Shown piece after piece: positions 2,807 to 21,777 of a stretch of DNA of 32,000 nt. The stretch spans positions 3,150,001 through 3,182,000 of the forward strand of contig OZ245049.1 of NCBI GenBank assembly GCA_965224465.1. Direction: 5' to 3'. A program made the position numbers and the translations under genes. Source of the DNA: Flavobacteriaceae bacterium (GTDB lineage: Bacteria; Bacteroidota; Bacteroidia; Flavobacteriales; Flavobacteriaceae). Position 1 is the first letter of the stretch, and each line of letters begins with the position of its first letter. Under the pieces are notes generated by a model that saw only the letters and a program-made list of their open reading frames with translations, was not told the DNA's origin and did not search any database.

Positions 2807-2832
2807 AATTTATAATTTAAGTTGTTCAAAAC

Positions 2833-2867
2833 AAATAACATGTTATTTTATGAATAACATGTTATTT
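2833..2867. promoter_or_regulatory. two tandem perfect palindromes upstream of the OMP gene
   Basis: AAATAACATGTTATTT (2833-2848, 16-bp perfect palindrome) and AATAACATGTTATT (2854-2867, 14-bp perfect palindrome). Their centres are 20 bp apart and they lie 27-61 bp upstream of the ATG at 2806. Confidence 0.5.
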
Positions 2868-3037
2868 TTAAAACAGCTTTAACGTTTTTAACTAATTTTA
2901 ACCTAATTACTGTAAATGAGTGTTTTATCTTCTTTTTTGAGCTTGTTTTATAGCGGAATTATGTCGTCTTTTTATAGCAATTCATGGGTTTTAGGTTTTC
3001 GTATAAGTACTTATTTGGAAGCCTATTACGTTCTTTT

Positions 3038-4773
3038 TTAATCCAATAATTCTTTTTTAAATATATAGTTTTTAAAATCTACTTTATACAATAGACTATA
3101 AATAGAAGGTATAAATAATAAGGTGATAATAGTTCCAAATAGCAAGCCTATCATAATGGTTACAGCCATTGGTTCCCACATTGCCCCGCCGCCAAGGTAT
3201 AAAGGAACTAAACCTAATACAGTGGTAAAAGTGGCTAATATAATAGGTCTAAATCGTTGTAAACAAGCTGAGATAATGGCGTCTTGTGGCGTACGTTTTA
3301 ACTCTTTTTCTTCTATTTCGATCCTATCTACCAGTACAATTGCATTATTTATGACAATCCCTGCCAAAGAAATAACGCCTAAAAATGCCATAAATCCAAA
3401 AGGGACTCCGAAAATTAATAAACCTAGCACCATACCAATTACACCTAACGGAATGGTTAACACAATCATGGTCATTTTTCTAAAGGAATTATACTGAATG
3501 ATTAATAGCATCACAATTATAAATCCGGAAAGGGGTAGGTATTTAGCAACTGCTCCCATGTTTTCAGCACTACTTTCGGCATCACCTCCCAACGAATAGG
3601 TATATCCATCACCCCATTTTTTCTTCTGTTCTTCTAGCCAAGGTGTAACTATTGAACTGATCTCATTGGCGTTTCCGTTTTCTGTTAACTGGCTTTGAAT
3701 GTTGATAGTTCGAGTTAGATTTAACCGTTTAATTTTAGCGTATTGCCACTGGGGAATAATTTTGGCGACTTGTAATAAAGGCACACTATTCCCAGAGCTT
3801 TGTGAAAATATGTTTAGTGATTCTAAGGAAGCTAATGATTGTTCTTTACTAGCTTCACTTCACTTAACATTACAATTGGAATTGATTTATCTCCTTCTCT
3901 AAATTCACCTGCCTGAAAACCATCCAAAACTGTTTGTAAGGATGTTGCAATATCTTGATTTGTAATTCCAGCTGCTTGGGCATTGTTTTTATTTATTGCA
4001 ATTACAAATTTTTTCCCTTTTGGTCCCCAATCATCTTTGATGTTTTTTGTGTCAGCAATACTGAATAGTTTTACTTTTATAGATTCTGATATTGCAGCTA
4101 ATTTATCTGGATCTTTTCCTGACACTTTCACTTCAATATGTGTGCCTCCTCCTCCAGCTCCTAACAAACCTACTTTAATTTCAGCATTGGGAAAGGTGTT
4201 GAAGCAAAATGCATCAAGTTGTTTGATCATCTCGTTATTTACTAGAAAATCGGTTGTATTCACCAATATATGTGCGTAATTAGAATTTGCTTCGTCAGCA
4301 TTGTACCCGAGGTCATATGTTGAAGGTCCTTTTCCAATATAAGAAGACCAGTCTACAATCCCATTCTTTCTATCAGTGTCTATTTTTAAATGGTCTTGAA
4401 TAAACTTTTCAATGGCTAAAACAGTGGCAGTAGTACTTTCTATTTTTGTTCCTTGAGGTAAATTAACATCTATGGTAATCATGTTCCTATCACTAGGTGG
4501 GGAAAATAAAACGTCTAAATAATTGAATCCTAAAATGGATAAAAAGAACAAGGCTACAATGCCAAACAATACTGTTTTTTTTCCATGAAAGCGCCCATAA
4601 AATAAGGCCTTTGTACTTTTCTTTCATTAAGAATATCATCCGATCCAAGCCCTCCGGTTTCTTGTCTTTTTTTATGTCAATTTTCAATAAAAACACACAA
4701 AATAAAGTTATAATACTCAAGGAAATTACCCAAGATGATATTAAGGCAATTGAAATAAAGCGTTTGTGTGATG
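3038..4773 (-). pseudogene. efflux RND transporter permease (AcrB/CzcA family), 5'-truncated and twice frameshifted
   Basis: Three track ORFs (3038..3784, 3832..4569, 4493..4789) are consecutive pieces of one RND permease: a TM6-like ALISSWVISLSIITLFCVFLLK, then FSPPSDRNMITIDVNLPQG, then GIVINNAIVLVDRIE and RFRPIILATFTTVLGLVPL. The frames rejoin if one A is removed from the A8 run (plus-strand T8 at 4575-4582) and one copy of the tandem TTCAC TTCAC (3854-3863) is removed. About 470 N-terminal residues are missing. Confidence 0.85.
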
Positions 4774-4840
4774 CCAAATACATTTCCAAGTGAAGGTTTA
4801 GAAAACAACCTATTTATATCGGTCAGTTTGGATTGTGTGG
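4774..4840 (-). repeat. MITE-like repeat, copy F (67-bp mini-copy, the two ends joined)
   Basis: The reverse complement reads CCACACAATCCAAACTGACCGATATAAATAGGTTGTTTTCTAAACCTTCACTTGGAAATGTATTTGG. That is the 5' end plus the 3' end of the full copies at 16509 and 19859. Confidence 0.75.
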
Positions 4841-4929
4841 TATTATTTAACAATTCGGCCACCATTAACTAACATCCAATTAACCATTAGTTTACATAGG
4901 AGTCTGTTCTTTGTTGAAAATAGAAATAG

Positions 4930-5319
4930 ATGAAAAATTGGTTTTTTATAGGTGTGTTGCTTGTAGGCTGTCAACTGTTTTCTCAAGGACTTGATGTCTC
5001 ATTGGTCTCGGGATTTATACAGACAGGGAGTGTAAAAGGGAAGGTGTTCGATGCCAATGATGGGGATGGGCATTTGGTCTTTGCTACTGTTGTAGTTAAA
5101 GAATTAGAGCTGCAAATGGAAACAGATATAGAGGGTGCTTTTAATTTTCAGCTATCGCCTGGGCGCTATACGCTGGAGGTAAATTTTATAGGGTACCAAG
5201 AGCAGCTATTTTTAGTAGAGGTAGTTGGAGGTGACACTTCTAGAAAAACGGTGTTTTTAGAACCTTTAAAAATCCAATCAGCTCCATTGTTAGAGCCGAT
5301 TGATTCTTTTCAGTTTTAA
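4930..5319 (+). CDS. carboxypeptidase-regulatory-like (CarboxypepD_reg) domain protein; possibly the N-terminal stub of a TonB-dependent receptor
   Basis: Signal peptide MKNWFFIGVLLVGCQLFSQ, then GSVKGKVFDANDGDGHLVFATVVV...GAFNFQLSPGRYTLEVNFIGYQEQ, which is typical of the domain that precedes the plug in SusC-like receptors. Only 129 aa. Confidence 0.6.
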   Translation: MKNWFFIGVLLVGCQLFSQGLDVSLVSGFIQTGSVKGKVFDANDGDGHLVFATVVVKELELQMETDIEGAFNFQLSPGRYTLEVNFIGYQEQLFLVEVVGGDTSRKTVFLEPLKIQSAPLLEPIDSFQF

Positions 5320-5329
5320 ATAGTTTTTA

Positions 5330-5428
5330 GGCAAATGTATTTCAAGGGATCGTTCTCAAAATAGAATTGTTTAGGTTTTTTTAATGCCAAAAAAACTATT
5401 TATATCGGTTATTTTGGACTGTAATTGG
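5330..5428 (-). repeat. MITE-like repeat, copy E (99 bp, internally rearranged or deleted)
   Basis: The reverse complement starts CCAATTACAGTCCAAAATAACCGATATAAATAGTTT and ends CCCTTGAAATACATTTGCC. It fills the gap between convergent genes and ends 2 nt from the dut stop codon. Confidence 0.7.
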
Positions 5429-5430
5429 AA

Positions 5431-5862
5431 TTAGACGCCTGTACTTCCAAAACCTCCAGTACCACGCTCTGTTTCGTCAAGGGTTTCTACCAGTTTCCAT
5501 TCGGCACGTTCGTGTTTTGCTATGACTAGTTGTGCAATTCTGTCACCGTCATTCACAGTAAAATCATCATTGGAAATATTGACTAAAATTACGCCTATTT
5601 CTCCGCGATAATCTGCGTCTATAGTTCCAGGGGCATTCAAAACTGTGATTCCGTTTTTGGCTGCCAATCCGCTGCGTGGGCGTACTTGTGCTTCGGTACC
5701 TACGGGAAGTGCAATAAATAAGCCTGTTTTTATAATGGCGCGTTGCAATGGTTTTAAAACGATAGCTTCTGATATATTTGCGCGTAAATCCATCCCAGCG
5801 GAAGCTGCTGTTTCGTAGGTTGGAGTTTGGTGTTTAGACTTGTTAATTAGTTGAATATTCAT
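5431..5862 (-). CDS. dut: dUTP diphosphatase
   Basis: [31 protein letters not shown] and the C-terminal [10 protein letters not shown] motif. 143 aa. Confidence 0.95.
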
Positions 5863-5867
5863 AGTTG

Positions 5868-7322
5868 TTATTTTTTAGTGATAATGCGTATTATGTTTTT
5901 TTTTTCTTGCCAGAAAATAATCACTGAAAAAGCGATGCATAGCCCCGTGGATACCCAATAGTTCCCTCGGAAACAAAGGAAAGAAATGGCAGAAATAAGG
6001 ATAGAAGCGCTTAAGTAAATAGCGATTTTTGATAAATTATAAGATACGGGATAGTATTTTTTTCCATAGAAATAAGAGAGTGTCATCATGCATCCATAGG
6101 CGGTTAGTGTTGCCCAAGCTGCTGAAATGACTCCGTAAATTGGTAAAAACACAACATTTATGATAATTGTGATTATAGCGCCTGTTATAGAAAAGTACAT
6201 ACCATACCGTGTTTTGTCTGTTAATTTATACCAAATAGATAAGTTGTGGTAAATGCCTAAGAACAAATAGGCTAATAGTACGATAGGGACAATGGATAGT
6301 GCGCTCCAATAGTTGTGGTTGATCAACAGTTTTATAAGGTCTATATAGCTTACAATTCCAACAAAAACGAGTGCTCCAATGATTACAAAATAGTTCAATA
6401 TTTTGGCATAGGTCTCTTTGGCGTTTTTTTCTTTTGCATGATTAAAAAAGAAAGGTTCTGCTCCCAATCTAAAAGCCATAATATACAAATTCATAAAAAT
6501 AGCGAGTTTGTAAACAGCGGCATAAACACCTTCACTTTCTTTGTTTATATAATGTCCTATTAATAGTTTGTCTAAATGCTCATTAACCGTATAAGCGATT
6601 CCTGCAATTAAAATTGGCCAACCGTAGGACAGCATTTTTTTAAGTAGTTTGAAACTGAATTTAAACTTGAATTTGATTAAATACGGAATTAACAAGAATA
6701 AACAAACAGCACTTCCCAGAAGATTTGCAATAAAAATAAAGTTGATTATTTGTGTGCTATTAAATGCATCTCCTAAAAAATCTGGAATGGATATGCCCTT
6801 GTCCAATTGCAGGGGTATCCATCGTAAAAACAACAAGTTTACGAGGACTATAATTCCGACGTTTGTCAGTTTTAAAAAGGCGTATTTTAAAGGCCTGTTT
6901 GAAGCACGTAAAAGAGCAAAAGGCACCATGGCTAGGGTGTCTAAAATTAGGATTCCAACAAGTAATTTAAACTGAATAGGATTGTTTTCAAAATTAAACA
7001 ACTGAATTAATTCTGATGCAAAAATAATACTGAGCACCCCAAATAATAGCGTTGTGAAAAGGATGCTAAAAAAGGCGGTGGAGACAAGGCTGTCTTTTTG
7101 TTTTTCTTGATTGTAAAATCTAAAGAAAGCGGTTTCCATACCGTAGGTTAACAAAACGGAAAATAGTGCTGCCCAAATGTAAAAATCCGTATTTTCTGCA
7201 TAACTTTTTGGAGGTAAGGCGTCTGTTTGGACTCTGACAAGTAGAAAATTAATCACTCTTGGAAGCACGGCAGCCATTCCATAGATGATAGTGTCTTTGA
7301 AAAACTTTTTTAGAATACTCAA
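5868..7322 (-). CDS. polysaccharide/oligosaccharide flippase family protein (Wzx-like, MOP superfamily)
   Basis: 484 aa and polytopic (about 12-14 hydrophobic helices). The N-terminus [29 protein letters not shown] is typical of polysaccharide biosynthesis/flippase proteins. The stop lies 5 nt before the dut start, so the two are probably co-transcribed. Confidence 0.75.
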
Positions 7323-7346
7323 AAATGTAATGTTTTATTTAGACTT

Positions 7347-7354
7347 CAAAAGTA
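7347..7354 (-). promoter_or_regulatory. candidate -7 box (TACTTTTG on the minus strand) for the flippase-dut operon
   Basis: Plus-strand CAAAAGTA at 7347-7354 is TAnnTTTG on the minus strand, 25 nt upstream of the ATG at 7322. Confidence 0.35.
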
Positions 7355-7471
7355 CATAATATGTTTTGAATCTTGTCAAAGATCTACAAATAGATGGATT
7401 GTAAAGAGCAGATTTAAGAGCTTTGGAAAAGACTTAACATTTGTTTTTTAAGTCAATTGCTCAAGTTTTGT

Positions 7472-7479
7472 TACTTTTG
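7472..7479 (+). promoter_or_regulatory. candidate -7 box (TACTTTTG) for gpsA
   Basis: Exact TAnnTTTG match, 24 nt upstream of the ATG at 7503. Confidence 0.35.
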
Positions 7480-7502
7480 GCTATTCAAAAGGGAAATAAT
7501 AT

Positions 7503-8498
7503 ATGAAGAATGATATTAAAATAGCTGTTTTTGGTGGTGGTAGTTGGGCTACAGCCATTGTAAAAATGTTATGCGAAAATTTAAATACAGTAGGTTGGTA
7601 TATGAGAAGTCAGTACGCAATTGATTATATAAAAGAAAACGATCACAACCCTAAATATATTCCTTCAGCGACTTTTAATGTAGAGAAGTTGTATTTGTCT
7701 AGTGATATAAATCAAATGGTGCGCTATGCAGACGTGTTGATATTTGCCATTCCGTCTGCGTTTATAAAAAAGGAATTGGATAAAATAACGGAAGATTATA
7801 CTGGAAAGATTATTTTTTCTGCTGTTAAAGGGATTGTTCCAGAAACGGGGTTGATTTTGGGGGAACATTTTAATAAGTTTCAAAATATACCTCTGGATAA
7901 TATTGGTGTTATTACGGGACCTTGTCATGCAGAAGAAGTGGCAATGGAGCGACTGTCTTATTTGACCATTGCTTGTCAGGATGCTAAAAAAGCTGAAATG
8001 CTAAGCGATTGTCTCAAAAGCGATTTTATAAAAACAAAAATTTCTGACGATATTATTGGAACGGAATATGCAGCCATGTTGAAAAATATTTTTGCGATAG
8101 CCGCTGGGATTGCTCACGGTTTGGGCTATGGAGATAATTTTCAGTCGGTATTGATGTCTAATGCTATTCGTGAAATGAAACGTTTTATTAAGAAAATTCA
8201 TAAGATGAAGCGGAACATTAATAATTCGGCGTATTTGGGTGATTTATTAGTGACCGGGTATTCTACATTTAGCCGAAATCGCATGTTTGGAAATATGATA
8301 GGGAAAGGCTATACCGTAAAAAGTGCACAGATGGAGATGAGCATGATTGCAGAAGGGTATTACGCTACTAAAAGCGCCTTTGAAATCAACAAAAAAAACA
8401 AAGCCAACACTCCTATTATAAATACGGTTTATGCCATTTTGTACGAGAATAAAAATCCGAAAGATGAGTTTAAGAAATTGACAGAATTGGTGGATTAA
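7503..8498 (+). CDS. gpsA: NAD(P)H-dependent glycerol-3-phosphate dehydrogenase
   Basis: N-terminal Rossmann fold IAVFGGGSWATAIV, plus GPCHAEEV, AAMLKNIFAIAAG and EGYYA motifs. 331 aa. Confidence 0.9.
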   Translation: MKNDIKIAVFGGGSWATAIVKMLCENLNTVGWYMRSQYAIDYIKENDHNPKYIPSATFNVEKLYLSSDINQMVRYADVLIFAIPSAFIKKELDKITEDYTGKIIFSAVKGIVPETGLILGEHFNKFQNIPLDNIGVITGPCHAEEVAMERLSYLTIACQDAKKAEMLSDCLKSDFIKTKISDDIIGTEYAAMLKNIFAIAAGIAHGLGYGDNFQSVLMSNAIREMKRFIKKIHKMKRNINNSAYLGDLLVTGYSTFSRNRMFGNMIGKGYTVKSAQMEMSMIAEGYYATKSAFEINKKNKANTPIINTVYAILYENKNPKDEFKKLTELVD

Positions 8499-8624
8499 GG
8501 ACCGATGTCAATTGTATGTTGCAATGCAATATTGTAAAGTATCGTTGATGCAAGATATGCGTATTAAAGCTGTTATTCTTGATGATTCAGGACACCTGTT
8601 TTTGGCAGGTAAAAAGACAAATAA

Positions 8625-8657
8625 AAAACCTAAGCTGTAATGTCTTAGGTTTTTTTT
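8625..8657. terminator. intrinsic terminator after gpsA (bidirectional form)
   Basis: AAAACCTAAG (8625-8634), loop CTGTAATGT, CTTAGGTTTT (8644-8653), with the T run extending to 8657. An A run on the left and a T run on the right allow function on both strands. Confidence 0.7.
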
Positions 8658-8682
8658 ATCGCTTAATAGTAAGTAGTCTTAT

Positions 8683-8829
8683 CCCAAATATCGGTTTAGA
8701 AATGGAATTACTTTTTGTTTTATCTAGGTGTAAAATTTAAGGATATCCTTAAATATCGTTGTATTTTTTAACAACGCCAGCACGTAAAATAGACTATTTG
8801 TATCGGTTATTTTGGTTTTGGTATAATTG
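8683..8829 (-). repeat. MITE-like repeat, copy D (near full length)
   Basis: The reverse complement reads CAATTATACCAAAACCAAAATAACCGATACAAATAGTCTATTTTACGTGC...ATTTAAGGATATCCTTAAAT...TAATTCCATTTCTAAACCGATATTTGG. It is colinear with copies A and B, with a perfect internal hairpin and a short deletion near the 3' end. It ends 1 nt from the stop codon of the 8831..9232 ORF. Confidence 0.8.
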
Positions 8830-8830
8830 T

Positions 8831-9232
8831 CTATTTTAAAAGAACACCTCGTTTTTCTAAAAGAGGAATCATTCGTAAAGTACTTTCTTTTACGGTTCCT
8901 TTTTCAAACGAGTATCTTTTGTCAAACATTTTATGGTCGTTAAAAAATGTCACATTAAAAAAATTGGTAAGTTTTAAGAGATCTTCTTGCATCAATTCTA
9001 CTTTTGCAAATGATTTTGCAGACATAGATTCTATTTTATGGCGGAACACGGCTGTTTCTTGTAAAGTGTCCTCGTTGTATCCTTTGGATACTATCAGTAC
9101 CATATCTATTGCGGTTTCTTTGTTGTTGATGATGTATGCGTTCCAGTCATCGCATTGAAATTCTGTATTGTATTCCTTTACAATGGCCATGAATACATTT
9201 TCAACCTCGGTAATTTCAATATCTTTTTTCAT
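8831..9232 (-). CDS. hypothetical protein
   Basis: 133-aa ORF with coding-like composition. It lies downstream of and co-oriented with pheS. No motif recognised. Confidence 0.5.
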   Translation of the reverse strand: MKKDIEITEVENVFMAIVKEYNTEFQCDDWNAYIINNKETAIDMVLIVSKGYNEDTLQETAVFRHKIESMSAKSFAKVELMQEDLLKLTNFFNVTFFNDHKMFDKRYSFEKGTVKESTLRMIPLLEKRGVLLK

Positions 9233-10484: not shown

Positions 10485-11828
10485 ATGGAATCTAAAATTA
10501 AAGCTTTTATGGATTTGGTTGCGTCAAGAGACCAACATCAACCAGAATTCTTGCAGGCAGTGCAGGAAGTTGCTGAAACTGTAATCCCTTATATATCAGG
10601 TAAAAAGATGTATAGTGAAAAAAACTTATTACTTAGAATGGTAGAGCCCGAAAGAGTGTTAACTTTTCGTGTAGCTTGGGTAGATGATTCGGGAGAAATA
10701 CAAGTAAATAGAGGATATCGTATCGAAATGAATTCAGCTATTGGCCCTTATAAAGGAGGCTTGCGTTTTCATCCTACTGTAAATTTGAGTATTTTAAAAT
10801 TCTTAGCTTTTGAGCAAGTATTTAAAAATGCCTTAACTACTTTGCCTATGGGAGGTGGTAAAGGAGGTTCTGATTTTGACCCTAAAGGGAAAACGGACAA
10901 TGAAATAATGCGCTTTTGCCAGTCGTTTATGAGTGAATTGTTCCGTCATATTGGCCCTAATACGGATATCCCTGCTGGAGATATAGGTGTTGGGAGTCGT
11001 GAGATCGGGTATTTGTTTGGAATGTACAAAAAATTGAGAAACGAGTTTACTGGAGTTCTTACTGGAAAGGGGCTTTCTTGGGGAGGTTCTTTGATCCGTC
11101 CTGAGGCTACTGGGTATGGTACCGTGTATTTTGCACAAAGTATGTTGAAGACTCAGAAAGATTCTTTAAAAGGAAAAATAGTGACTGTTTCTGGTGCTGG
11201 AAATGTAGCGCAATACGCTATTGAAAAAGCGACAGAATTAGGAGCTAAAGTGGTTACTTTTTCCGATTCTTCGGGGTATGTATATGATGCAGATGGTGTG
11301 GATGCTGAGAAATTAGCGTTTATTATGGAGTTGAAAAACGAAAGACGTGGTCGTGTAAGTGAGTATGTGACTAAATATCCTTCGGCGAAATTTGTAGCTG
11401 GAGAAAAACCTTGGTCTGTAAAATGTGAGGTAGCATTACCCTGTGCAACTCAAAATGAAATAGACGAGAAGGCTGCTAAAGTATTAATTGCAAACGGAAC
11501 TATCTGTGTAAGTGAAGGGGCTAATATGCCTAGTGTTCCTGAAGCAGTGACCGCATTCCATAAAGCAAAAATATTATATGCTCCAGGGAAAGCATCCAAT
11601 GCTGGTGGAGTAGCAACTTCTGGATTGGAAATGTCTCAAAACTCGTTGCGTATTAATTGGACTCGTACCGAAGTAGATGAGCGCTTAAAACAAATAATGA
11701 TAGATATTCACGCATCATGTTTGAAATATGGAACTCAAGAGGATGGCTATGTGGATTATGTAAGAGGTGCAAATATTGCAGGTTTTGTAAAAGTTGCAGA
11801 TGCCATGTTAGCGCAAGGAATTGTGTAA
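10485..11828 (+). CDS. gdhA: glutamate dehydrogenase, hexameric family, NADP-type coenzyme fingerprint
   Basis: Catalytic block GPYKGGLRFHP, LPMGGGKGGSDFDPKG. The dinucleotide fold VSGAGNVAQYAIEKATELGAKVVTFSDSSG closely resembles E. coli GdhA (GSGNVAQYAIEKA...SDSSG). 447 aa. Confidence 0.9.
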   Translation: MESKIKAFMDLVASRDQHQPEFLQAVQEVAETVIPYISGKKMYSEKNLLLRMVEPERVLTFRVAWVDDSGEIQVNRGYRIEMNSAIGPYKGGLRFHPTVNLSILKFLAFEQVFKNALTTLPMGGGKGGSDFDPKGKTDNEIMRFCQSFMSELFRHIGPNTDIPAGDIGVGSREIGYLFGMYKKLRNEFTGVLTGKGLSWGGSLIRPEATGYGTVYFAQSMLKTQKDSLKGKIVTVSGAGNVAQYAIEKATELGAKVVTFSDSSGYVYDADGVDAEKLAFIMELKNERRGRVSEYVTKYPSAKFVAGEKPWSVKCEVALPCATQNEIDEKAAKVLIANGTICVSEGANMPSVPEAVTAFHKAKILYAPGKASNAGGVATSGLEMSQNSLRINWTRTEVDERLKQIMIDIHASCLKYGTQEDGYVDYVRGANIAGFVKVADAMLAQGIV

Positions 11829-11844
11829 TTTTTTTTTATAATAT

Positions 11845-11880
11845 AAAAAAAGGCTGCCTATGGCGGCCTTTTTTCTTTTC
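11845..11880 (+). terminator. intrinsic terminator after gdhA
   Basis: GGCTGCC (11852-11858), loop TAT, GGCGGCC (11862-11868): a 7-bp GC-rich stem with one G-T pair, followed by TTTTTT. An A run precedes it. Confidence 0.8.
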
Positions 11881-11987
11881 TGTGCACTTTTCTACGCTTC
11901 TTTCTTAGGAGCGGAATTCACATTATTTAAAAAGATTTCAGTTTGAAAACTAATAAATCTTACCTTGCAGAGACTAATTTCACGGAA

Positions 11988-14900
11988 ATGCAAAAAAGAG
12001 AATTGCCGAATTTAAGAACGTATGAATTTCAGGAGTTTGAATTCAATCAGCTAATGCAAAACCGCATTCAGCGAGTGTTAATTGTATGTTCTAATTACGA
12101 TTATTACGGACTGGAGGAAGATGGAAGAATCGAAGAACGTATTTTTAATGAATATACCGATTTAAACCTGAGGTATCCGCCGAGTTTTATACATGCTAAT
12201 TCTGCTAAAAGAGCATTGAAATTAATGGAGTCTCATAAGATAGATCTGATTATTACATGGCTAGACATTGAGAGTTATAAGGCGTATGAAACTGCAGAGC
12301 AGATAAAAGATGCCCATCCAGAGGTGCCTATTGCTGCCTTGAGCCACTATTCTTCTGAGTTGAGTAAAAAGCTGAAATTAGAAAAAAACGAAGTGATTGA
12401 CTATGTGTTTCACTGGAGTGGAAATGTGGATATATTTTTGGCAATTATCAAGTTGACAGAGGATCGCATGAATGCAGAAAAAGACATTAATAAGATTGGG
12501 GTAAAAGCCATTTTATTAGTCGAAGATTCCCTGCGTTTTTATTCGCGTTATATTCCATTGATCTATAAAATTATTTTAAAACAAACTCATGCTTCCATGT
12601 CTGAAGGTTTGAATGAGCACAGGCGTATGAAATTGATGCGGGGACGTCCAAAAATACTTTTGGCTACAACCTATGAAGATGGTTTGTCCTTGTTTGAGAG
12701 TTATCGATACAATTTATTAGGAGTGATTTCCGATGTGTCTTATTCAAAAAATGGAAAGCAAGATGCAGAAGCTGGTTTTATCTTTTTAAAATACGTACGA
12801 TCGTTTAAGCGGTATTTTCCTTTTTTAATTCAGTCGTCTGAAAAGAAAAATGAAAAAAAAGCATTAGAACTCAATGGGAAATTTTTATACAAGCATTCAG
12901 AGACCTTAGAAAAAGAAATTAAAAATTATATTATTAAGTATTTCTCTTTTGGTGATTTTGAATTTTGGGACCCCAATCAAATGAAAGTATTGGCAAAAGT
13001 AAATGATTTGAAAAACTTTCAGAAGGCATTGTCTTTTGTGACCGTTGAGTCTATTTCTTACCATGCCGAACGTAGTGAATATTCAAAATGGTTAAAGTCT
13101 AGGGCTTTATTTCCATTGGCAGATTTGTTTAGTGAGGTGGAGTATTACGATTTTGAGAATCCTGAAGAAATAAGGGATTTTTTGATCGATTCTATCAAGA
13201 CCTATCGCGTGTATCGTTCTCGAGGGGTAATTGCTAAATTTGATAAGAAGAGATACGATGAATATTTAGTGTTTTCAAGAATTGGTGAAGGCGCTTTGGG
13301 TGGAAAAGGACGTGGATTGGCTTTTATCGATTCGTTTCTAAAACGAAATAAATTGTTTAGTAAGTTTAAGGATGTTACCATTTCTATACCGCAAACCGTG
13401 GTGTTGAGTACAGAGGTTTTTGATGAGTTTATGGATACTCACGATTTGATTCAGTTTGTTGCAAAAAATAATGATGATGAGCTTATATTGAAGGAGTTTA
13501 TTTCCAAATCGTTGCCAATATGGGTTCGGGAAGATATTCAGGCGTATTTAGATGTGGCTAAAAACCCTATTGCTGTGCGTTCTTCGAGTGTATTGGAGGA
13601 TTCACATTACCAGCCTTTTGCGGGGGTTTTTGCAACGTATATGGTGCCAAACACCTCTGATGAGAACATGTTGGATATGGTGTGTAATGCTGTAAAATCG
13701 GTGATGGCTTCTGCGTTTTCTCGTAGTAGTAAAGCTTATTTGAAGGCGACGTCACATTCTTTGGAGGAAGATAAAATGGCAGTTATTTTACAAGAAGTGA
13801 TTGGTAAACAATATGAAGATGTCTATTATCCAAACGTTTCTGGAGTGGCTAGATCTATTAATTTTTATCCTTTAGGAGATGAAAAACCAAAGGAGGGAAT
13901 CGCTCATATTGCGATGGGACTCGGAGAGATTATTGTAGGAGGTGGGCGTACACTTAGGTTTTCTCCTTATCATCCTAAAAAAATATTGCAATTATCATCG
14001 CCAGGAGCTTCTCAACGTGATACTCAAAAATTCTTTTATGGCTTAGATATGAATCCAGATAGCTATGTGGTTTCTATTAGTGAGACTGTAAACAAGAAAA
14101 AAATAAGCTTGAGAAAAGCAAAAAATCATGGGTCTTTAAAATTTGTAGCTTCTACGTACGACTTGCAAAACAATGTGATAAGACCAGGAGTTATGCAGGA
14201 TGGAATTCGGGTACTTACTTTTGATCATATTCTTAAATATGATACTTTTCCACTAGCGGATATTTTAAAGGAACTATTGAAAATAGGTCAGCGTGAAATG
14301 CAAAACCCTATAGAAATTGAATTTGCAATAAAGTTAGATGTTCCCAAAGGACAGCCTAAAGAATTTAGTTTTTTGCAAATTAGACCTATTGTAGAAACGG
14401 CAGCTGAGGTAAGTATTGTGCCAGATGATATTGATACTAAAGATACTATTATTTATTCTGAATCTGCCTTGGGTAATGGGAAATACGAAGGGATTGTTGA
14501 TTTTGTATATGTAAAACCAGATACTTTTAATGCAGCAAATACACGTCAAATTGCATTGGCAGTGGAGCAAATGAATAAAAAGTTTGTGGATTCGGGTAAA
14601 AATTATGTACTGGTAGGTCCTGGGCGTTGGGGCTCTAGTGATCCATGGTTAGGAATCCCTGTGATTTGGCCGCAGATTTCAGCAGCAAAAGTAATTGTAG
14701 AGGCTGGATTACATGATTTTAGAATAGATCCTAGCCAAGGGACTCATTTTTTTCAAAATCTAACCTCGTTTAAAGTTGGGTATTTGACCATTAACCCGTT
14801 TATAAATGATGGCTTTTTGGATATTGATTATTTAAATGAACTTGAGGCTGAATTTGAGGATGAGTTTATCCGTCATGTGCATTTTAAAACACCACTTAGT

Positions 14901-15020
14901 ATTTTGATAGAAGGAAGTAAAAACAAGGCGGTTATCTTTAAAGAAGGAGTGGAAATAAAGAAGAAAACAGAGAGTTTGGAAGAATCTATTGATGAATTGC
15001 CGCCAGAGGGATTTCTCTAA
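11988..15020 (+). CDS. two-receiver / PPDK_N-type (PEP/pyruvate-binding, ATP-grasp) domain protein of unknown function
   Basis: The track ORF starts at TTG 11943. The first ATG is at 11988 (MQKRELPNL), which I prefer. Numbering below follows the track.
- Residues 44-175: receiver-like but degenerate. IVCSNYD replaces the acidic pair and DYVFHWSG replaces the conserved Lys.
- Residues 188-320: canonical receiver. LLVEDS, GVISD (Asp264, nt 12732-12734), FLIQSS, FLYKHS.
- Residues about 446-800: PPDK_N-like. GGKGRGLAF, IAVRSSSVLEDSHYQPFAGVFATY, MAVILQEVIG.
- C-terminal block: GPGRWGSSDPWLGIPV...DPSQGTHFFQN.
No GGxTSHAA swivel motif is present. Confidence 0.8.
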   Translation: MQKRELPNLRTYEFQEFEFNQLMQNRIQRVLIVCSNYDYYGLEEDGRIEERIFNEYTDLNLRYPPSFIHANSAKRALKLMESHKIDLIITWLDIESYKAYETAEQIKDAHPEVPIAALSHYSSELSKKLKLEKNEVIDYVFHWSGNVDIFLAIIKLTEDRMNAEKDINKIGVKAILLVEDSLRFYSRYIPLIYKIILKQTHASMSEGLNEHRRMKLMRGRPKILLATTYEDGLSLFESYRYNLLGVISDVSYSKNGKQDAEAGFIFLKYVRSFKRYFPFLIQSSEKKNEKKALELNGKFLYKHSETLEKEIKNYIIKYFSFGDFEFWDPNQMKVLAKVNDLKNFQKALSFVTVESISYHAERSEYSKWLKSRALFPLADLFSEVEYYDFENPEEIRDFLIDSIKTYRVYRSRGVIAKFDKKRYDEYLVFSRIGEGALGGKGRGLAFIDSFLKRNKLFSKFKDVTISIPQTVVLSTEVFDEFMDTHDLIQFVAKNNDDELILKEFISKSLPIWVREDIQAYLDVAKNPIAVRSSSVLEDSHYQPFAGVFATYMVPNTSDENMLDMVCNAVKSVMASAFSRSSKAYLKATSHSLEEDKMAVILQEVIGKQYEDVYYPNVSGVARSINFYPLGDEKPKEGIAHIAMGLGEIIVGGGRTLRFSPYHPKKILQLSSPGASQRDTQKFFYGLDMNPDSYVVSISETVNKKKISLRKAKNHGSLKFVASTYDLQNNVIRPGVMQDGIRVLTFDHILKYDTFPLADILKELLKIGQREMQNPIEIEFAIKLDVPKGQPKEFSFLQIRPIVETAAEVSIVPDDIDTKDTIIYSESALGNGKYEGIVDFVYVKPDTFNAANTRQIALAVEQMNKKFVDSGKNYVLVGPGRWGSSDPWLGIPVIWPQISAAKVIVEAGLHDFRIDPSQGTHFFQNLTSFKVGYLTINPFINDGFLDIDYLNELEAEFEDEFIRHVHFKTPLSILIEGSKNKAVIFKEGVEIKKKTESLEESIDELPPEGFL

Positions 15021-15086: not shown

Positions 15087-15094
15087 AAGTTTGT
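15087..15094 (+). promoter_or_regulatory. candidate -7 box (TAAGTTTG) for the downstream gdh
   Basis: Exact TAnnTTTG match, 62 nt upstream of the ATG at 15156. Confidence 0.35.
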
Positions 15095-15155
15095 AGAGCG
15101 TTAAATGGCAAGTCGTGTTGCTTTTTGATTGAACACAAATTTATACGAAATTATT

Positions 15156-16493
15156 ATGAATGCAAACGAGATAATAAATAATTTAGAAGCCAAACATCCT
15201 GGTGAAAAAGAGTATTTACAAGCAGTACATGAGGTTTTAGAATCAATAGAGACTGTGTATAACGAAAACCCTCAGTATGAGGCTGCTAAAATTATTGAGC
15301 GATTGGTAGAACCAGATCGTATTTTTACTTTTAGGATTTCCTGGATGGATGATGCGGGGAATGTAAATGTAAATATAGGGTACAGAGTCCAATTTAACAA
15401 TGCAATTGGCCCTTATAAAGGTGGCTTGAGATTACACCCAAGTGTAAACTTGAGTATTCTTAAGTTTTTAGGTTTTGAGCAAATATTTAAAAATGCCTTA
15501 ACTACCTTACCAATGGGTGGAGGTAAAGGAGGTTCTGATTTTAATCCTAAAGGGAAATCAGACAACGAAATTATGCGTTTCTGTCAAGCGTTTATGTTAG
15601 AATTATGGCGCGTTATTGGCCCAAATACAGATGTTCCTGCTGGGGATATTGGAACTGGTGGACGTGAAATTGGTTTTATGTACGGTATGTATAAAAAACT
15701 ACAACAGGAAAATGCTGGTATTCTTACAGGTAAAGGATTGAATTGGGGTGGTTCTTTGATTCGTCCAGAAGCAACTGGTTTTGGAGCAACGTATTTTGCA
15801 AATCAAATGTTGACCTATAATAAAGATACTTTTAAAGGTAAAACTGTGGCTGTTTCTGGATTTGGAAATGTGGCTTGGGGGGTTGCTTTAAAAGTAACAG
15901 AACTCGGCGGTAAAGTCCTAACTATTTCTGGTCCTGATGGTTATATCTATGATAAAGATGGGTTAGATGCAGATAAAATTGATTATTTATTAGAATTAAG
16001 AGCTTCTAATAACGACATCGTTTCTCCATTTGCTGAGGAATTTCCTGAAGCCGTTTTTGTAGCAGGTAAAAAACCTTGGGAAGTGAAATGTGATATTGCG
16101 ATGCCAAGCGCAATTCAAAACGAATTAAATGGTGATGATGCAAAATTATTGATTGCAAATGGATTGAAATATGCTGTGGAAGTTTCGAATATGGGTTGTA
16201 CGCCTGAGGCGATAGCTGCATTCCATGAAGGGCAAGTGCCTTTTGCTCCTGGTAAAGCTGCAAATGCTGGAGGAGTTGCAGTTTCTGGTTTGGAAATGTC
16301 TCAAAATGCCATGAAGTTAAACTGGTCTAAAGAGGAAGTGGACGAGAAACTTAAAGTGATCATGACTTCAATACATGAGGCTTGTAAAAAATACGGTACA
16401 CAGGAAGATGGATTTGTTGATTATGTAAAAGGAGCAAATATTGCTGGTTTTATTAAAGTGGCAGATTCTATGTTAGATCAAGGAGTGATTTAA
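15156..16493 (+). CDS. glutamate dehydrogenase, hexameric family, NAD-type coenzyme fingerprint
   Basis: The track starts at TTG 15129. The in-frame ATG at 15156 (MNANEIINNLEAKHPGEKEYLQAV) aligns with the N-terminus of the other paralog. The catalytic block is the same as in gdhA. The dinucleotide fold is VSGFGNVAWGVALKVTELGGKVLTISGPDG, as in Clostridium symbiosum-type NAD-GDH (GFGNVAW...SGPDG). Confidence 0.9.
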   Translation: MNANEIINNLEAKHPGEKEYLQAVHEVLESIETVYNENPQYEAAKIIERLVEPDRIFTFRISWMDDAGNVNVNIGYRVQFNNAIGPYKGGLRLHPSVNLSILKFLGFEQIFKNALTTLPMGGGKGGSDFNPKGKSDNEIMRFCQAFMLELWRVIGPNTDVPAGDIGTGGREIGFMYGMYKKLQQENAGILTGKGLNWGGSLIRPEATGFGATYFANQMLTYNKDTFKGKTVAVSGFGNVAWGVALKVTELGGKVLTISGPDGYIYDKDGLDADKIDYLLELRASNNDIVSPFAEEFPEAVFVAGKKPWEVKCDIAMPSAIQNELNGDDAKLLIANGLKYAVEVSNMGCTPEAIAAFHEGQVPFAPGKAANAGGVAVSGLEMSQNAMKLNWSKEEVDEKLKVIMTSIHEACKKYGTQEDGFVDYVKGANIAGFIKVADSMLDQGVI

Positions 16494-17348: not shown

Positions 17349-19727
17349 TTAAGACCCACACATTTCGCAATCGTCGGGATTGTTTTGGGATGCGGTAAGC
17401 ATGGATTTTAATTCTTCTGGGGATAAGGAGGTTTCCTTATCTTTCTTTTTTGATACGGTGAATTGTATGGCGTTTACGGCGCTTTTGGTTCTCAAATAAT
17501 ACATGCCTGTTTTTAATCCAGATTTCCAAGCGTAAAAATGCATGGAAGTTAATTTGGCAAAATTCGGTTCTTGCATAAATAAGTTTAAGGATTGTGACTG
17601 GTCTATAAAATAGCCGCGTTGCCTGGACATGTCAATAATGTCTTTCATGCTCATTTCCCATACTGTTTTGTACAAGTCTTTTAATTCTTGAGGAATAATG
17701 TCTATGTGTTGGATGGAGCCATTGGCACGCATAATGTCTTCTTTCATATCGTTGTTCCACAGGTTCAGTGCTACGAGGTCTTCTAGTAGGTGTTTGTTGA
17801 CCACAATAAACTCTCCTGAAAGTACGCGGCGCGTATATATGTTAGAAGTATAAGGTTCAAAGGCTTCGTTGTTTCCTAGGATTTGGGAGGTAGATGCTGT
17901 AGGCATAGGAGCGACTAATAAGGAGTTTCTCAGTCCGTTTTTTACCACTTCTTTGCGTAGCTTTTTCCAGTCCCAACGTCCGCTTAAATCATCTTCAGAA
18001 ATGTTCCACATGTTAAATTGAAATTCTCCTTTACTCATGGGTGATCCTTTGAAAGTAGAATATGCTTCTTTTGAGGTTGCCATTTCCATGGATGCGGTAA
18101 CCGCTGCAAAGTAGATGGTTTCAAATATGTCACTGTTTAAGCTCTTGGCGGCATCGCTGGTAAATGGCATTCGAAGCATTATAAACGCATCCGCCAATCC
18201 TTGAATTCCTAATCCGATAGGGCGGTGACGCATGTTTGAGTTTTCGGCTTCTTTTACGGGATAGTAATTTCTATCGATAACAGTGTCTAGGTTGTTTGTA
18301 ATTTTCTTGGTGATTTTAAATAGGTGTTCATGGTTGAAGAATTTTTCTCCCTGTTCGTTTTCTTCAATAAACATTGGCAAGGCGATAGAAGCTAAATTAC
18401 AAACGGCAATTTCGTCTTTGGCTGTGTACTCTATAATTTCAGTACATAAATTTGAAGATCTAATTACGCCTAAATTTTTCTGGTTGGATTTACGATTGGC
18501 TGCGTCTTTGTAAAGCATATATGGGTTTCCCGTTTCTATTTGTGCTTCTAGTATTTTTTCCCATAAGAGACGTGCTTTGATTGTTTTTCTCCCTTTTCCT
18601 TCTTTTTCGTAGCGCGTGTAAAGTGCTTCAAATTCATCTCCGTATACATTGTATAGATTGGGGCATTCGTTTGGACACATAAGCGTCCATGCTGCATTTT
18701 CCTCCACGCGTTTCATAAATAAATCAGAAATCCACATGGCTAAAAATAAATCTCTTGCGCGCATTTCTTCTTTTCCTGTATTCTTTTTTAGGTCTAAAAA
18801 GTCAAAAACATCGGCATGCCATGGTTCTAAGTATATGGCAAATGATCCCTTTCGTTTTCCTCCTCCTTGATCTACATACCTAGCGGTATCGTTGTACACT
18901 TTTAGCATGGGTACAATTCCATTAGAAGTCCCGTTTGTACCTCTGATATAGGATCCTGTTGCGCGAATGTTGTGGATAGAAATTCCGATTCCGCCAGCCG
19001 ATTGAGAAATTTTAGCGGTCTGTTTTAGGGTGTCGTAGATTCCGTCTATACTATCGTCTTGCATTTGTAATAAAAAACAAGAAGACATTTGAGGTTTTGG
19101 AGTTCCCGAATTAAATAGGGTAGGAGTTGCATGGGTAAAGTACTTCTTAGACATTAATTCGTATGTAGCGATAGCTTCGTCAATGTCTTCTTTGTGAATT
19201 CCTATTGCCACACGCATCAACATGTGTTGTGGACGCTCTGCAATGTGTCCGTTTAGTTTTAACAAGTAACTTCTTTCGAGTGTTTTAAAACCAAAATAAT
19301 CATAGTTGAAATCGCGATTATAGATAATGGTGGAGTCTAATTTTGCGGCATTTTTTTTGATGATTTCGTGGACGTCATCTGCAAGTAATGGTGCTTTTTG
19401 ACCTGTGCGAGGACTTATGTATGTGTATAAGTCCGTCATAACTTCGGAAAATGATTTCTTGGTATTCTTATGTAGGTTGGATACGGAAATTCTAGCTGCG
19501 AGCTTTGCGTAATCTGGATGTTGAACAGTCATGGTTGCTGCTATTTCTGCTGCCAAATTATCCAACTCCGAAGTGGTCACTCCGTCGTACAATCCTTCAA
19601 TCACGCGCATGGCTACTTTTACAGGGTCTACTAGACTGTTCAGTCCGTAGCACATTTTTCGTACTCTTGCTGTAATCTTATCAAACATTACGGGTTCTTT
19701 TCCTCCATTTCTTTTTAATACGTACAT
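17349..19727 (-). CDS. nrdA: ribonucleoside-diphosphate reductase alpha subunit (class I, eukaryote-like)
   Basis: ATP-cone start [20 protein letters not shown]. Catalytic motifs [15 protein letters not shown] and [17 protein letters not shown]-terminal redox pair CEMCGS. 792 aa. Confidence 0.95.
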
Positions 19728-19858
19728 CTGCTGTTATTTAGTTTTTAGAACACTTTTTTATGTTTGTTTCTAAAGTGTAGTCACAAGATAATCTTGAGCA
19801 TACATGCTTTTGGTAAACATATTGTAAGTGCTGCTTATTTGTTAGTTTAGTCTTATAT

Positions 19859-20012
19859 CAATATCAATTCAAAATAACCGATATGAATAGTTTATTTTAC
19901 GTGCGGGTGTTGTTGAAAAACAGAACGATAGCTAAGGCTATCCTTAGATTTCCCGCCTAGCTAGAACAAAAAATAATTCCATTTCTAAACCGTTACTTGG
20001 AAATGTATTGGG
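19859..20012 (+). repeat. MITE-like repeat, copy B (full length, 154 bp) inside the nrdB-nrdA spacer
   Basis: Colinear with copy A throughout: ...CAAAATAACCGATATGAATAGTTTATTTTACGTGCGGGTGTTGTTGAAAAACAGAACGATAGCTAAGGCTATCCTTAG...CGCCTAGCTAGAACAAAAAATAATTCCATTTCTAAACCGTTACTTGGAAATGTATTGGG. It is antisense to the nrd genes. Confidence 0.85.
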
Positions 20013-20068
20013 TCTTATTAAAAGACGATGATTGTTTTAGCGTACTTGTTTTTTTTGTGGAGATATTG

Positions 20069-21040
20069 TTAAAAATCTGCATCAAAACCTATTGCTCCTG
20101 TTCCACCGCTTTTTACACCTGCTTTTTGATATTCCGAAACGCGTTTTTCAAAGAAGTTTGTTTTTCCTTCGAGTGATATCATTTCCATAAAATCAAAGGG
20201 ATTACTGACATTGTATACTTTTTCACATTCAAATTCTAACAACAAACGATCCGTTACAAATTCCAAGTATTGGGTCATGAGTTTAGCATTCATTCCGATT
20301 AAGCTGACGGGTAAAGACTCTGTAATAAATCTGCGCTCAATATCTAATGCATTTGTTAAAATATGTGTAATGCGTTCTTTTGGAACTTTATTGATAATGT
20401 GGTGGTTGTGTAAGTGAACCGCAAAGTCACAGTGTAGGCCTTCATCTCTAGAAATTAGTTCGTTAGAAAATGTGAGTCCAGGTAGTAAACCGCGTTTTTT
20501 AAGCCAAAATATAGAACAAAAACTACCTGAAAAGAAAATGCCTTCTACGGCGGCAAAAGCAATCAATCGTTCTGCAAAACTTGGACTGTCTATCCAGTTA
20601 AGTGCCCAATCTGCTTTTTCTTTGATTGCTGGGAAATGGTCTATAGCAGTAAATAATTCAGATTTCTCAGCTTCGTTTTTCACATAGGTATCTATCAATA
20701 AAGAATATACTTCTGAGTGGATGTTTTCCATCATGATTTGAAAACCATAAAAGAATTTTGCTTCTGGGTATTGAACCTCAGACACAAAATTTTCTGCTAA
20801 GTTCTCGTTTACAATGCCGTCAGATGCTGCAAAAAAGGCTAGGATATGTTTGATAAAATAGCGTTCGTCATCCGTTAATTTGGTTTCCCAATCAATTACA
20901 TCTTGGTGTAAGTCTATTTCTTCAGCAGTCCAGATACTAGCTTCTTGTTTTTTGTACCATTCCCATAAATCGTGATGTTGGATAGGGAAAATAACGAATC
21001 GGTTTTTGTTTTCTTGTAGTATAGGTTCAATAGCTGGCAT
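20069..21040 (-). CDS. nrdB: ribonucleoside-diphosphate reductase beta subunit (class I, eukaryote-like)
   Basis: Metal and radical-site motifs [18 protein letters not shown] and [11 protein letters not shown]-terminal FDADF tail like eukaryotic R2. 323 aa. Confidence 0.95.
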
Positions 21041-21432: not shown

Positions 21433-21777
21433 TATTGTTGTTTTAGAAAGGATGCGTTGGTATCTCGCTCGTTTATTTTGGGCAGTGGAATTGTACTGCT
21501 CTCTTAATTTTTATAAACACCCGTAAAAGGGGAACATCGTTTTGTGTTTAAAAGGGAACGGATTTTCGGAAGTGTGTTTTGTCCCCTTGGGTTGAGCTTA
21601 TTGATTTATAGCGTTTAAATTTTTGAGAATTAACTATTTCCATCTTGTTGGCGTTTGTGGTTTTATTTTGAGGCTTTATTGTTTTACATTTCTTAAAAAA
21701 TGTGTATTTTTCACGAATCTAAAGAATGAAGCTGTTTTCTATTGATTGGGACGGTTAATTGCTATACTATCAACAAG

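Follow-up and report, generated by a model that had tools for sequence, protein, structure and literature searches.

Between two glutamate dehydrogenase (GDH) genes in a 32,000-nucleotide stretch of a Flavobacteriaceae genome (assembly GCA_965224465.1, contig OZ245049.1, positions 3,150,001 to 3,182,000; this whole stretch is called the window, with positions counted from its first nucleotide) lies a gene encoding two response-regulator receiver (REC) domains, a PPDK_N-type ATP-grasp domain (PPDK, pyruvate phosphate dikinase), and a C-terminal domain outside any assigned family. We find that this REC-PPDK_N protein belongs to a large family with a family-wide genomic tie to GDH genes that includes members lacking receivers, and this comparative linkage is the main new result. 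As a tentative reading, to which we give a probability of about 40%, the protein is a phosphotransferase, gated by its receivers, that controls GDH or the 2-oxoglutarate/glutamate node.

Linkage of the REC-PPDK_N family to glutamate dehydrogenase genes

The gene and its two flanking dehydrogenase genes, whose products are 62% identical to each other, are:

11988..15020, + strand: REC(pseudo)-REC-linker-PPDK_N-C-terminal-domain gene, 1010-residue product (list of open reading frames [ORFs], AlphaFold2 model)
10485..11828, + strand: GDH1, the upstream glutamate dehydrogenase, NADP-specific type PRK09414 (Pfam, NCBIfam)
15156..16493, + strand (ORF listed from TTG 15129): GDH2, the downstream glutamate dehydrogenase, PRK14030 type (Pfam, NCBIfam)

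The extent of the family was determined by a sequence search with residues 420 to 1010 over 1.84 billion cluster representatives. At E<1e-30, 822 clusters (50% identity) match this segment, usually over the whole 565 residues, and because most of these matches run end to end, the ATP-grasp and C-terminal domains constitute one module; the C-terminal domain is fused in every family member. The module occurs with two receivers, with a shorter N-terminal region (~705 to 870 residues in total), or with no N-terminal extension, and the proteins fall into length groups of ~920 to 1150 (mostly ~1000; two receivers), ~705 to 870, ~520 to 670 (module alone), and ~1520 to 1650 residues. Close relatives number more than 7,900, mostly from Flavobacteriaceae at ~75% identity, and carry the database names 'PEP/pyruvate-binding domain-containing protein' (PEP, phosphoenolpyruvate) or 'phosphoenolpyruvate synthase'. 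The latter label, which many members bear, is almost certainly wrong, as neither a swivel nor a PEP/pyruvate domain is present (see below). With each GTDB species represented by one genome, a scan yielded at least 594 confirmed loci, the best 80 of which were analyzed, and the 93 family copies from these 80 loci served as the conservation set. The best 80 loci span Flavobacteriia, Bacteroidales (Bacteroides, Phocaeicola, Prevotella, Alistipes, Muribaculaceae, Parabacteroides, and others), and Chlorobiota; the family as a whole is present in at least ~590 species genomes and comprises thousands of sequence clusters.

A GDH gene lies no more than 6 kb away in 28 of the 80 species loci (35%), which include all 10 of the Flavobacteriia loci together with loci of Alistipes, Prevotella, Bacteroides/Phocaeicola, and Paludibacter. 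Each of the 10 Flavobacteriia loci has GDH2 immediately downstream, and Aureibaculum and Gaetbulibacter share the GDH-gene-GDH order of the window despite differences in the other neighbors. Arrangements in Bacteroidales are more varied: the GDH gene may follow directly in the same orientation, lie upstream in divergent orientation, converge on the family gene, or be separated from it by one gene. Two GDH subfamilies, of ~445 and ~427 residues, are linked to the family. About 10 Bacteroidales/Chlorobiota loci have, upstream and in the same orientation, the genes of a two-subunit, korAB-type 2-oxoacid:ferredoxin oxidoreductase, and these are usually succeeded by a tandem pair of REC-PPDK_N paralogues. 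Beyond GDH and korAB, no neighbor family recurs across lineages in the 80 loci, the other recurrent clusters coming from few loci, and no histidine kinase is a recurrent neighbor in them.

Several loci depart from a single gene copy. In one Flavobacteriia-like metagenome-assembled genome (locus L003, 407-8175), the order is gene-GDH2-gene, with copies of 1010 and 1006 residues, mirroring the GDH-gene-GDH order of the window. Tandem duplications are seen at nine loci of Bacteroidales/Chlorobiota metagenome-assembled genomes (L011, L012, L016, L019, L027, L028, L029, L031, and L034, at ~2400-8950 in each), in which a copy of ~990 residues comes directly after a longer paralogue (~1150 to 1270 residues) that has Lys at the position of R799 and a pseudo-receiver of a different kind; korAB is upstream in most of these, and the residues corresponding to D249 and H920, discussed below, are kept in both copies.

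The linkage reaches distant, receiver-less members of the family, with only 33 to 39% identity. Those linked to GDH are:

P0130: 1639 residues, two module types fused; GDH 55 nt upstream on the same strand
P0223: 594 residues, module only; GDH fragments ~1.3 kb upstream
P0209: 1557 residues; divergent from GDH, with another REC-PPDK_N gene following that GDH
P0241: 586 residues, module only; its start lies 4 nt ahead of the GDH stop codon, in two independent contigs

The GDH beside P0223 is split into ORFs of 146 and 189 residues (L169, 4638-5685), as in a pseudogene or an assembly error. Behind P0241 are a gene for a 1068-residue paralogue with GPGRWG, SFGTHFF, and a C-terminal Pol-beta nucleotidyltransferase domain, and then a metallophosphoesterase gene; these partners would fit a reversible covalent-modification system. 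We note that this paralogue type recurs as a 'type B' module subfamily (L171, 8758-11964; L167, 7001-11920), characterized by GPGRWGSRG, SFGTHFFQD, an N-terminal extension of ~330 residues, and the C-terminal Pol-beta nucleotidyltransferase domain. It is encoded either by a separate gene after the type-A module or fused to type A, as in P0130, and stands beside GDH both ways.

By our estimate, a random 12-kb window of a ~4-Mb genome with one or two GDH genes would contain GDH less than 1% of the time. A chance origin of the linkage is very unlikely, because the observed frequency is 35% and the linkage involves two GDH subfamilies and several gene orders. The initial annotation, made from the sequence of the window without database searches, had implied a connection with the two flanking GDH genes, which these comparisons strongly reinforce.

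Domain architecture and the PPDK_N ATP-grasp domain

The domains and conserved motifs of the protein are:

12072..12467, + strand: REC1, an aspartate-less pseudo-receiver, residues ~29-160 (weak Response_reg match, PDB profile matches, hhalign)
12504..12902, + strand: REC2, a phosphorylatable receiver, residues ~173-305 (hhalign against CheY, conservation, AlphaFold2 secondary structure)
12945..13292, + strand: linker domain, a beta-hairpin and then a helical bundle, residues ~320-435 (model; weakly DUF5752-like)
13293..14408, + strand: PPDK_N-type ATP-grasp nucleotide-binding domain, residues 436-807 (Pfam, Foldseek, invariant columns)
14421..14942, + strand: C-terminal domain outside any assigned family, residues ~812-985 (AlphaFold2, conservation)
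Residues 32-38: IVCSNYD (REC1)
Residues 138-145: DYVFHWSG (REC1)
Residues 176-181: LLVEDS (REC2)
Residues 245-249: GVISD (REC2)
Residues 279-284: FLIQSS (REC2)
Residues 299-304: FLYKHS (REC2)
Residues 438-446: GGKGRGLAF
Residues 530-548: VRSSSVLEDSHYQPFAGVF
Residues 586-594: KATSHSLEE, with the only TSH of the protein
Residues 597-604: MAVILQEV
Residues 877-892: GPGRWGSSDPWLGIPV
Residues 914-924: DPSQGTHFFQN

A full-length AlphaFold2 model built with 150 homologues (pLDDT 82.9, pTM 0.71) shows two (beta-alpha)5 domains, the hairpin-plus-helices linker, and the ATP-grasp domain, with an alpha/beta domain standing apart at the C-terminus. When this model was compared with the PDB using Foldseek, the top match (E=1.2e-11) was 5hv1, a rifampin phosphotransferase, and the next ones were PleD chains (matches 2 to 10) and other tandem-receiver proteins. 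The linker scores just below threshold against DUF5752 (residues 332-403, 22.5 bits against a Pfam cut-off of 23), a family that is matched above the cut-off in the relative P0209.

The ATP-grasp assignment is firm. PPDK_N (PF01326) is matched with E=1.6e-38 and 133.3 bits (cut-off 27), over profile positions 3 to 315 of 328, and the closest PDB sequence matches are 5hv6, 5fbs, and 5hv1, with HpeI (9goj) also among them. In NCBIfam, the PEP synthase, PigC/RedH, and rifampin phosphotransferase models align only with residues ~456-652, at scores far under their cut-offs. All copies examined retain K440, R531, E537/D538, E778, and Q797, and residue 799 is Arg in 81 and Lys in 12 of the 93 copies. 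We take K440, R531, E778, and Q797/R799 to correspond to the nucleotide- and metal-binding catalytic residues of PPDK, namely the Lys of GGKG, the Arg of VRSS, the Glu of IEFA, and the Gln and Arg of LQxRP, so that the motif residues of the ATP-grasp domain, as judged by alignment, are intact.

These results bear out much of what had been proposed from the sequence. All of the motifs that the initial annotation quoted are present where it placed them, its PPDK_N output domain is confirmed, and KATSHSLEE is indeed the sole TSH, inside the ATP-grasp region. The profile searches that it suggested recover PPDK_N, detect Response_reg in the first domain only and below the cut-off, and give no match to PEP-utilizers; its readings of the first domain as a pseudo-receiver and of the second as retaining all phosphorylation residues agree with the analyses of the receivers presented below. 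The acceptor aspartate that it called D264 is the right residue under a different numbering; it is D249 when counted from the ATG, the TTG start adding 15 residues.

A C-terminal domain with an invariant histidine in place of a swivel domain

Outside the ATP site, the C-terminal domain is the most sharply conserved region of the protein. Its conserved motifs are GPGRWG (with R880), LGIPxxW, E905, and SxG[ST]HFF with H920 (codon 14745-14747). R880, G889, P891, E905, S916, G918, and H920 are invariant in 95 sequences with 29 to 46% identity to the window protein. In the conservation set, H920 is present in 91/91 copies having a residue there and S916 in 90/91, and K440, R531, E778, Q797, R880, E905, and G918 are without exception among the 93 copies where the position is occupied. 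Modelled alone, the domain is predicted with confidence (pLDDT 89). In the full-length model, pLDDT falls below 50 solely at residues 804-806, which form the stretch between the ATP-grasp and C-terminal domains, at residues 915-918, the loop ahead of H920, and in the C-terminal tail.

No similarity of this domain to a swivel phosphohistidine domain was detected by any of the methods used. Pfam finds nothing in the C-terminus of the window protein at E<=10, PEP-utilizers (PF00391) is absent in a Pfam scan of 45 diverse C-terminal domains, and neither PEP-utilizers nor PEP-utilizers_C is found in the full protein by Pfam or NCBIfam, which likewise yield neither the TIM-barrel PEP/pyruvate domain (PF02896) nor a rifampin-binding domain. 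A profile search of all PDB sequences gave solely chance-level longin matches, and Foldseek returned zero matches at E<1e-3 for the pLDDT-89 model. With hhalign, the probability was 0.1% against Escherichia coli PpsA, which is not significant, and ~1% against a swivel profile composed of 78 distinct PpsA swivel sequences with E. coli PtsI and PtsP; in positive controls, the PpsA swivel profile recovered PtsI at 97% and PtsP at 86%. The absence of swivel and TIM-barrel domains that had been noted from the sequence is therefore upheld by Pfam, NCBIfam, PDB profile search, Foldseek, and hhalign, and the structure prediction that had been suggested for the C-terminus produced a confident model with no significant PDB fold match.

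We also considered whether the domain could be a highly divergent swivel. By eye, 'VLVGPGRWGSSDPW...AKVIVEAG...GTHFF' and the order of secondary structure elements resemble PpsA 'VLVTDMTDPDW...ASAIVTNRGGRTCHAA', and the weak Foldseek matches of the domain are to an LD-carboxypeptidase and a PA domain (TM ~0.33; not significant), both presumably 'swivelling beta/beta/alpha' folds in SCOP, a coincidence that is not significant evidence. Foldseek, Pfam, PDB profile search, and hhalign give no support to this candidate, and the controls worked.

The initial annotation had denied the protein any function as a classical dikinase, which goes too far. Because the C-terminal domain is confidently modelled alone, is connected through a low-confidence joint, and carries the invariant H920, a dikinase-like relay is possible, in which phosphohistidine transfer would use a carrier domain that is not homologous to the swivel. 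An invariant histidine in a predicted flexible loop, on a domain tethered to an intact PPDK-type ATP-grasp domain, is what a functional swivel analogue would be expected to look like.

The tandem receivers

REC1 has a receiver fold without an acceptor aspartate and is a pseudo-receiver. Its Pfam Response_reg score (23.6 to 26.6 bits) is under the cut-off of 30.2, receiver domains are matched at positions 45-165 in the PDB profile search, and hhalign aligns REC1 with CheY at E=6.4e-5, placing W93 at the position of D57. The position of W93 is Met in the family consensus, S35/N36 are in place of the acidic pair, and the conserved Lys is absent.

REC2 is a complete receiver with the canonical phosphorylation residues E179/D180, D249 (codon 12732-12734), S283, and K302. 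Using hhalign, D249 falls on CheY D57 and S283 on CheY T87, and E179/D180 and K302 are placed by their positions in strands 1 and 5 of REC2, from the sequence and the model. The model has alternating strands and helices in a (beta-alpha)5 pattern over residues 174-318, and homology of REC2 to REC1 is detected by hhalign with a probability of 96%. Pfam has zero matches to REC2 at E<=10, and many relatives at 50 to 55% identity do have a precomputed PF00072 match. D249 is kept in 92/92 copies with a residue there, and S283 and K302 in 93/93.

Two further parts of the receivers are strikingly constant. In the N-terminal segment of REC1 (residues 19-65), F19, L22, M23, R26, S35, Y37, E43, G46, R47, E50, E55, Y56, L59, L61, and P65 are invariant in 150 homologues, as are E206, N209, R218, R220, P221, and K222 in a conserved insertion of REC2 (residues ~197-222). 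This is more conservation than a passive adaptor would seem to require, and the two regions could be partner- or ligand-binding surfaces.

Start codon and local transcription signals

The reading frame is open over 11943-15020 (+), with a TTG at its 5' edge and an ATG at 11988. Because the relatives found by protein similarity search are almost all 1009 to 1011 residues long, the ATG is the likely start, giving the 1010-residue product. Similarly, ATG 15156 is a likelier start for GDH2 than TTG 15129, because it gives exactly 445 residues, the length of its orthologues. Two elements bear on transcription:

11846..11874, + strand: intrinsic-terminator-like hairpin with a 13-bp stem and then a T run, just 3' of GDH1 (terminator scan and sequence)
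~15088-15095: TAAGTTTG element between the REC-PPDK_N gene and GDH2 (sequence inspection)

The consensus of the Bacteroidota -7 promoter element is TAnnTTTG, which the TAAGTTTG element fits. The strong hairpin separates GDH1 from the REC-PPDK_N gene, and GDH1 is therefore probably a separate transcript; the terminator scan finds no terminator-like site between the REC-PPDK_N gene and GDH2. From the hairpin after GDH1 and the element before GDH2, the three genes are here probably neighbors with separate promoters rather than one obligatory operon. A sigma-70 promoter scan of the AT-rich window (G+C ~29 to 39%) was uninformative, with 24 sites against 23.7 expected, and its model is moreover ill-suited to Bacteroidota promoters.

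The protein had been called an orphan response regulator without an adjacent partner kinase, which is correct in that no kinase gene is adjacent; the word means nothing beyond that. The closest histidine kinase, and the only one in the window, is 9 kb off (24216-25805, -), beside its own LytTR regulator. We note that this HisKA/HATPase_c kinase and the LytTR-type regulator (26354-27106, +) are probably a pair and not partners of the REC-PPDK_N protein.

Possible roles of the REC-PPDK_N protein

In the reading that we favor, a receiver-gated phosphotransferase, an unlinked histidine kinase would phosphorylate D249 of REC2, with REC1, lacking an acceptor aspartate, acting as an adaptor as in PleD-type tandem-receiver regulators, and phosphorylation would turn the catalytic module on or off. 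The ATP-grasp domain would bind ATP and pass a phosphoryl or pyrophosphoryl group to H920 of the C-terminal domain, which would stand in functionally for a swivel domain without detectable kinship to one. The group would then be passed from H920 to a target, most likely GDH, whose activity would in this way be set by nitrogen/carbon status. Gating by phosphorylation, H920 as phospho-carrier, and GDH rather than a metabolite as acceptor are the steps that we infer.

Several observations weigh against this proposal. No GDH is present within 6 kb in 52/80 species loci (~65%), nor nearby for four of eight distant members whose context could be used (the contig of a ninth, P0179, is too short to judge). 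A cognate histidine kinase was not found, either in the window or among the neighbors in the 80 loci. The C-terminal domain has no swivel similarity detectable by Foldseek, hidden Markov model search, or hhalign, and the case for H920 as a phospho-carrier is consequently drawn from its conservation and the tethering of its domain. To our knowledge, the characterized PPDK_N enzymes all act on small molecules, so that a protein substrate such as GDH would be unusual. Finally, the korAB association could reflect a shared metabolite, 2-oxoglutarate, no less readily than a protein target.

The last two points lead to the main rival of GDH modification, a receiver-gated phosphotransferase, ligase, or dikinase acting on a small molecule at the 2-oxoglutarate/glutamate node or making a signaling metabolite, with GDH and korAB as pathway neighbors. 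We regard this as rather unlikely, although it has substance: the ATP-grasp residues are intact, two 2-oxoglutarate-related systems (GDH and the korAB-type oxidoreductase) are nearby, and small molecules are phosphorylated by PPDK, PEP synthase, and rifampin phosphotransferase, as well as by HpeHI (PMC12167813). However, no substrate-binding domain is recognizable, of either the TIM-barrel or the rifampin-binding type, and receiver control together with the co-occurrence of a nucleotidyltransferase and a phosphoesterase looks more regulatory than metabolic. Nor do we know of a pathway that needs a phosphorylated 2-oxoglutarate or glutamate derivative made in this way. That the GDH neighborhood reflects co-regulation or chance synteny, with an enzyme unrelated to nitrogen metabolism, is improbable. 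The loci and distant members without an adjacent GDH are what it would predict, as are the terminator that separates GDH1 from the gene and the promoter element that GDH2 may possess, but it is hard to reconcile with the 35% frequency set against the chance estimate, or with recurrence of the linkage across orientations, two GDH subfamilies, and receiver-less members, one of which overlaps GDH by 4 nt.

The remaining alternatives concern the histidine. The protein could be a self-contained phosphorelay in which the ATP-grasp domain and H920 form an unorthodox histidine kinase for D249 of the same or a partner protein, with GDH controlled by protein-protein interaction. The lack of an adjacent or recurrent kinase gene, the presence on one polypeptide of a histidine and an acceptor aspartate that are both invariant, and the chemically routine nature of phospho-His to Asp transfer are consistent with this, but receiver-less modules are widespread and still GDH-linked, so that a receiver cannot be the primary acceptor of the module; the arrangement is also without precedent, and we consider it quite improbable. 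Very improbable is a conventional split dikinase with a separately encoded swivel-histidine protein, for which HpeHI, whose ATP-grasp and swivel parts are separate proteins (PMC12167813), provides the model and the PDB match to HpeI (9goj) a hint. The swivel motif GxT[SC]H[ASTG][AS] is found in 0 of ~720 neighbor ORFs from 81 loci, which rules against a swivel protein encoded in trans nearby, and in all members a strictly conserved C-terminal domain, particular to the family, is already fused.

A more ambitious form of the favored proposal, which we think doubtful, is that the module is the core of a widespread and previously unrecognized GDH covalent-modification system with a new type of phosphohistidine carrier domain, under two-component control in Bacteroidota and elsewhere operating with a nucleotidyltransferase paralogue and a phosphoesterase. 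If true, this system would explain two older Bacteroides observations. GDH in Bacteroides reportedly undergoes reversible inactivation in vivo. A 1996 paper by Baggio and Morrison, by its title, concerns 'trans-acting gene(s)' needed for Bacteroides thetaiotaomicron GdhA activity, and the complementing fragment was reportedly ~3 kb. This title also counts on the side of the favored reading, but the 'trans-acting gene(s)' could not be mapped to a REC-PPDK_N gene, a point against it. BT1971 of B. thetaiotaomicron encodes a catalase and is not the gene sought. When a Bacteroides-labelled locus served as the seed of a protein search, the matches were all of Phocaeicola type, and the genes downstream of the second GDH of that locus are unrelated, encoding a PCMD protein, an outer-membrane beta-barrel protein, and one ORF without a Pfam match.

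Bacteroidota are not known to have the NtrBC/GlnE-type nitrogen control of Proteobacteria. They include dominant gut genera (Bacteroides, Phocaeicola, Prevotella, and Alistipes) and marine Flavobacteriia. Should the family prove to control GDH or the 2-oxoglutarate/glutamate node, it would represent a new regulatory enzyme of central nitrogen metabolism and supply PPDK-type ATP-grasp folds with a catalytic partner domain of a new kind, with a concrete gene to pursue in tractable Bacteroides or Flavobacterium strains.

Other genes in the window

Near the end of the window are genes for a CobW/HypB/UreG-type GTPase (30325-31032, +) and a urea transporter of the UT family (31060-31977, +); these suggest a urease or urea-uptake cluster, and thus further nitrogen-acquisition genes 15 kb from the GDH pair. 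Genes for the large (ATP-cone) and small subunits of ribonucleotide reductase are followed by one for an 821-residue PIF1/RecD-like helicase with HRDC and HTH_40 domains (17349-21040, -, and 21742-24207, +). Upstream, two adjacent ORFs of 248 and 245 residues (3038-3784 and 3832-4569, both -) match AcrB/RND positions 789-1020 and 534-765, respectively, and no ORF covers the first ~530 positions of the model; this is suggestive of an RND pump gene that has been disrupted or truncated, or of a frameshift introduced in sequencing.

Comparison with known systems

The PPDK_N domain is common to Rph, PEP synthase, and PPDK, and the elements GGK(G/A), VRSS..ED, (I/V)E(F/W)A, and LQxRP are conserved among them and the window protein. 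Unlike these enzymes, the window protein is without the PEP-utilizers swivel, the TIM-barrel PEP/pyruvate domain, and the rifampin-binding domain, and has in their place the C-terminal domain with the SxG[ST]HFF histidine, together with two N-terminal receivers. PPDK-type ATP-grasp and swivel parts can be uncoupled, as HpeHI illustrates, and in HpeHI and phenylphosphate synthase the ATP-grasp part (HpeI, 9goj) is likewise not fused to a canonical swivel (PMC12167813). These systems, however, encode a swivel-plus-substrate-binding partner alongside, whereas none is present in the 81 family loci, where a different domain is fused instead.

The same domain combination has been catalogued in surveys of two-component systems. 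REC-PPDK regulators are listed as 'Bacteroides-like' and tabulated for Heimdallarchaeota in a 2018 archaeal census (Galperin et al. 2018, PMC5847659), and aspartate-less receivers are over-represented with pyruvate phosphate dikinase outputs (Maule et al. 2015, PMC4395418). Both papers catalogue architecture only and are silent on the absence of the swivel, the C-terminal histidine domain, and the GDH linkage; our literature search found such census mentions and no functional study of the REC-PPDK family. In its regulatory half, the protein resembles PleD-type regulators, in which an enzymatic output likewise follows two receivers in tandem, a phosphorylatable one and an adaptor, although here the order is reversed, with the pseudo-receiver first, and the output is an ATP-grasp module and not GGDEF.

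GlnE (glutamine synthetase adenylyltransferase) and AceK (isocitrate dehydrogenase kinase/phosphatase) are dedicated covalent switches of an enzyme at a central nitrogen or carbon node, the role that we propose for the REC-PPDK_N protein in GDH modification. The analogy is functional only, as the catalytic module is homologous to neither, although the catalytic domains of GlnE presumably belong to the same superfamily as the Pol-beta nucleotidyltransferase domain of the GDH-cluster paralogue. Because the REC-PPDK architecture has already been catalogued, the family is not a new protein class; it is an uncharacterized and widespread variant of the PPDK-type phosphotransferases, set apart by a C-terminal domain with an invariant histidine in place of the swivel, by tandem pseudo-receiver/receiver control, and by its family-wide tie to GDH.

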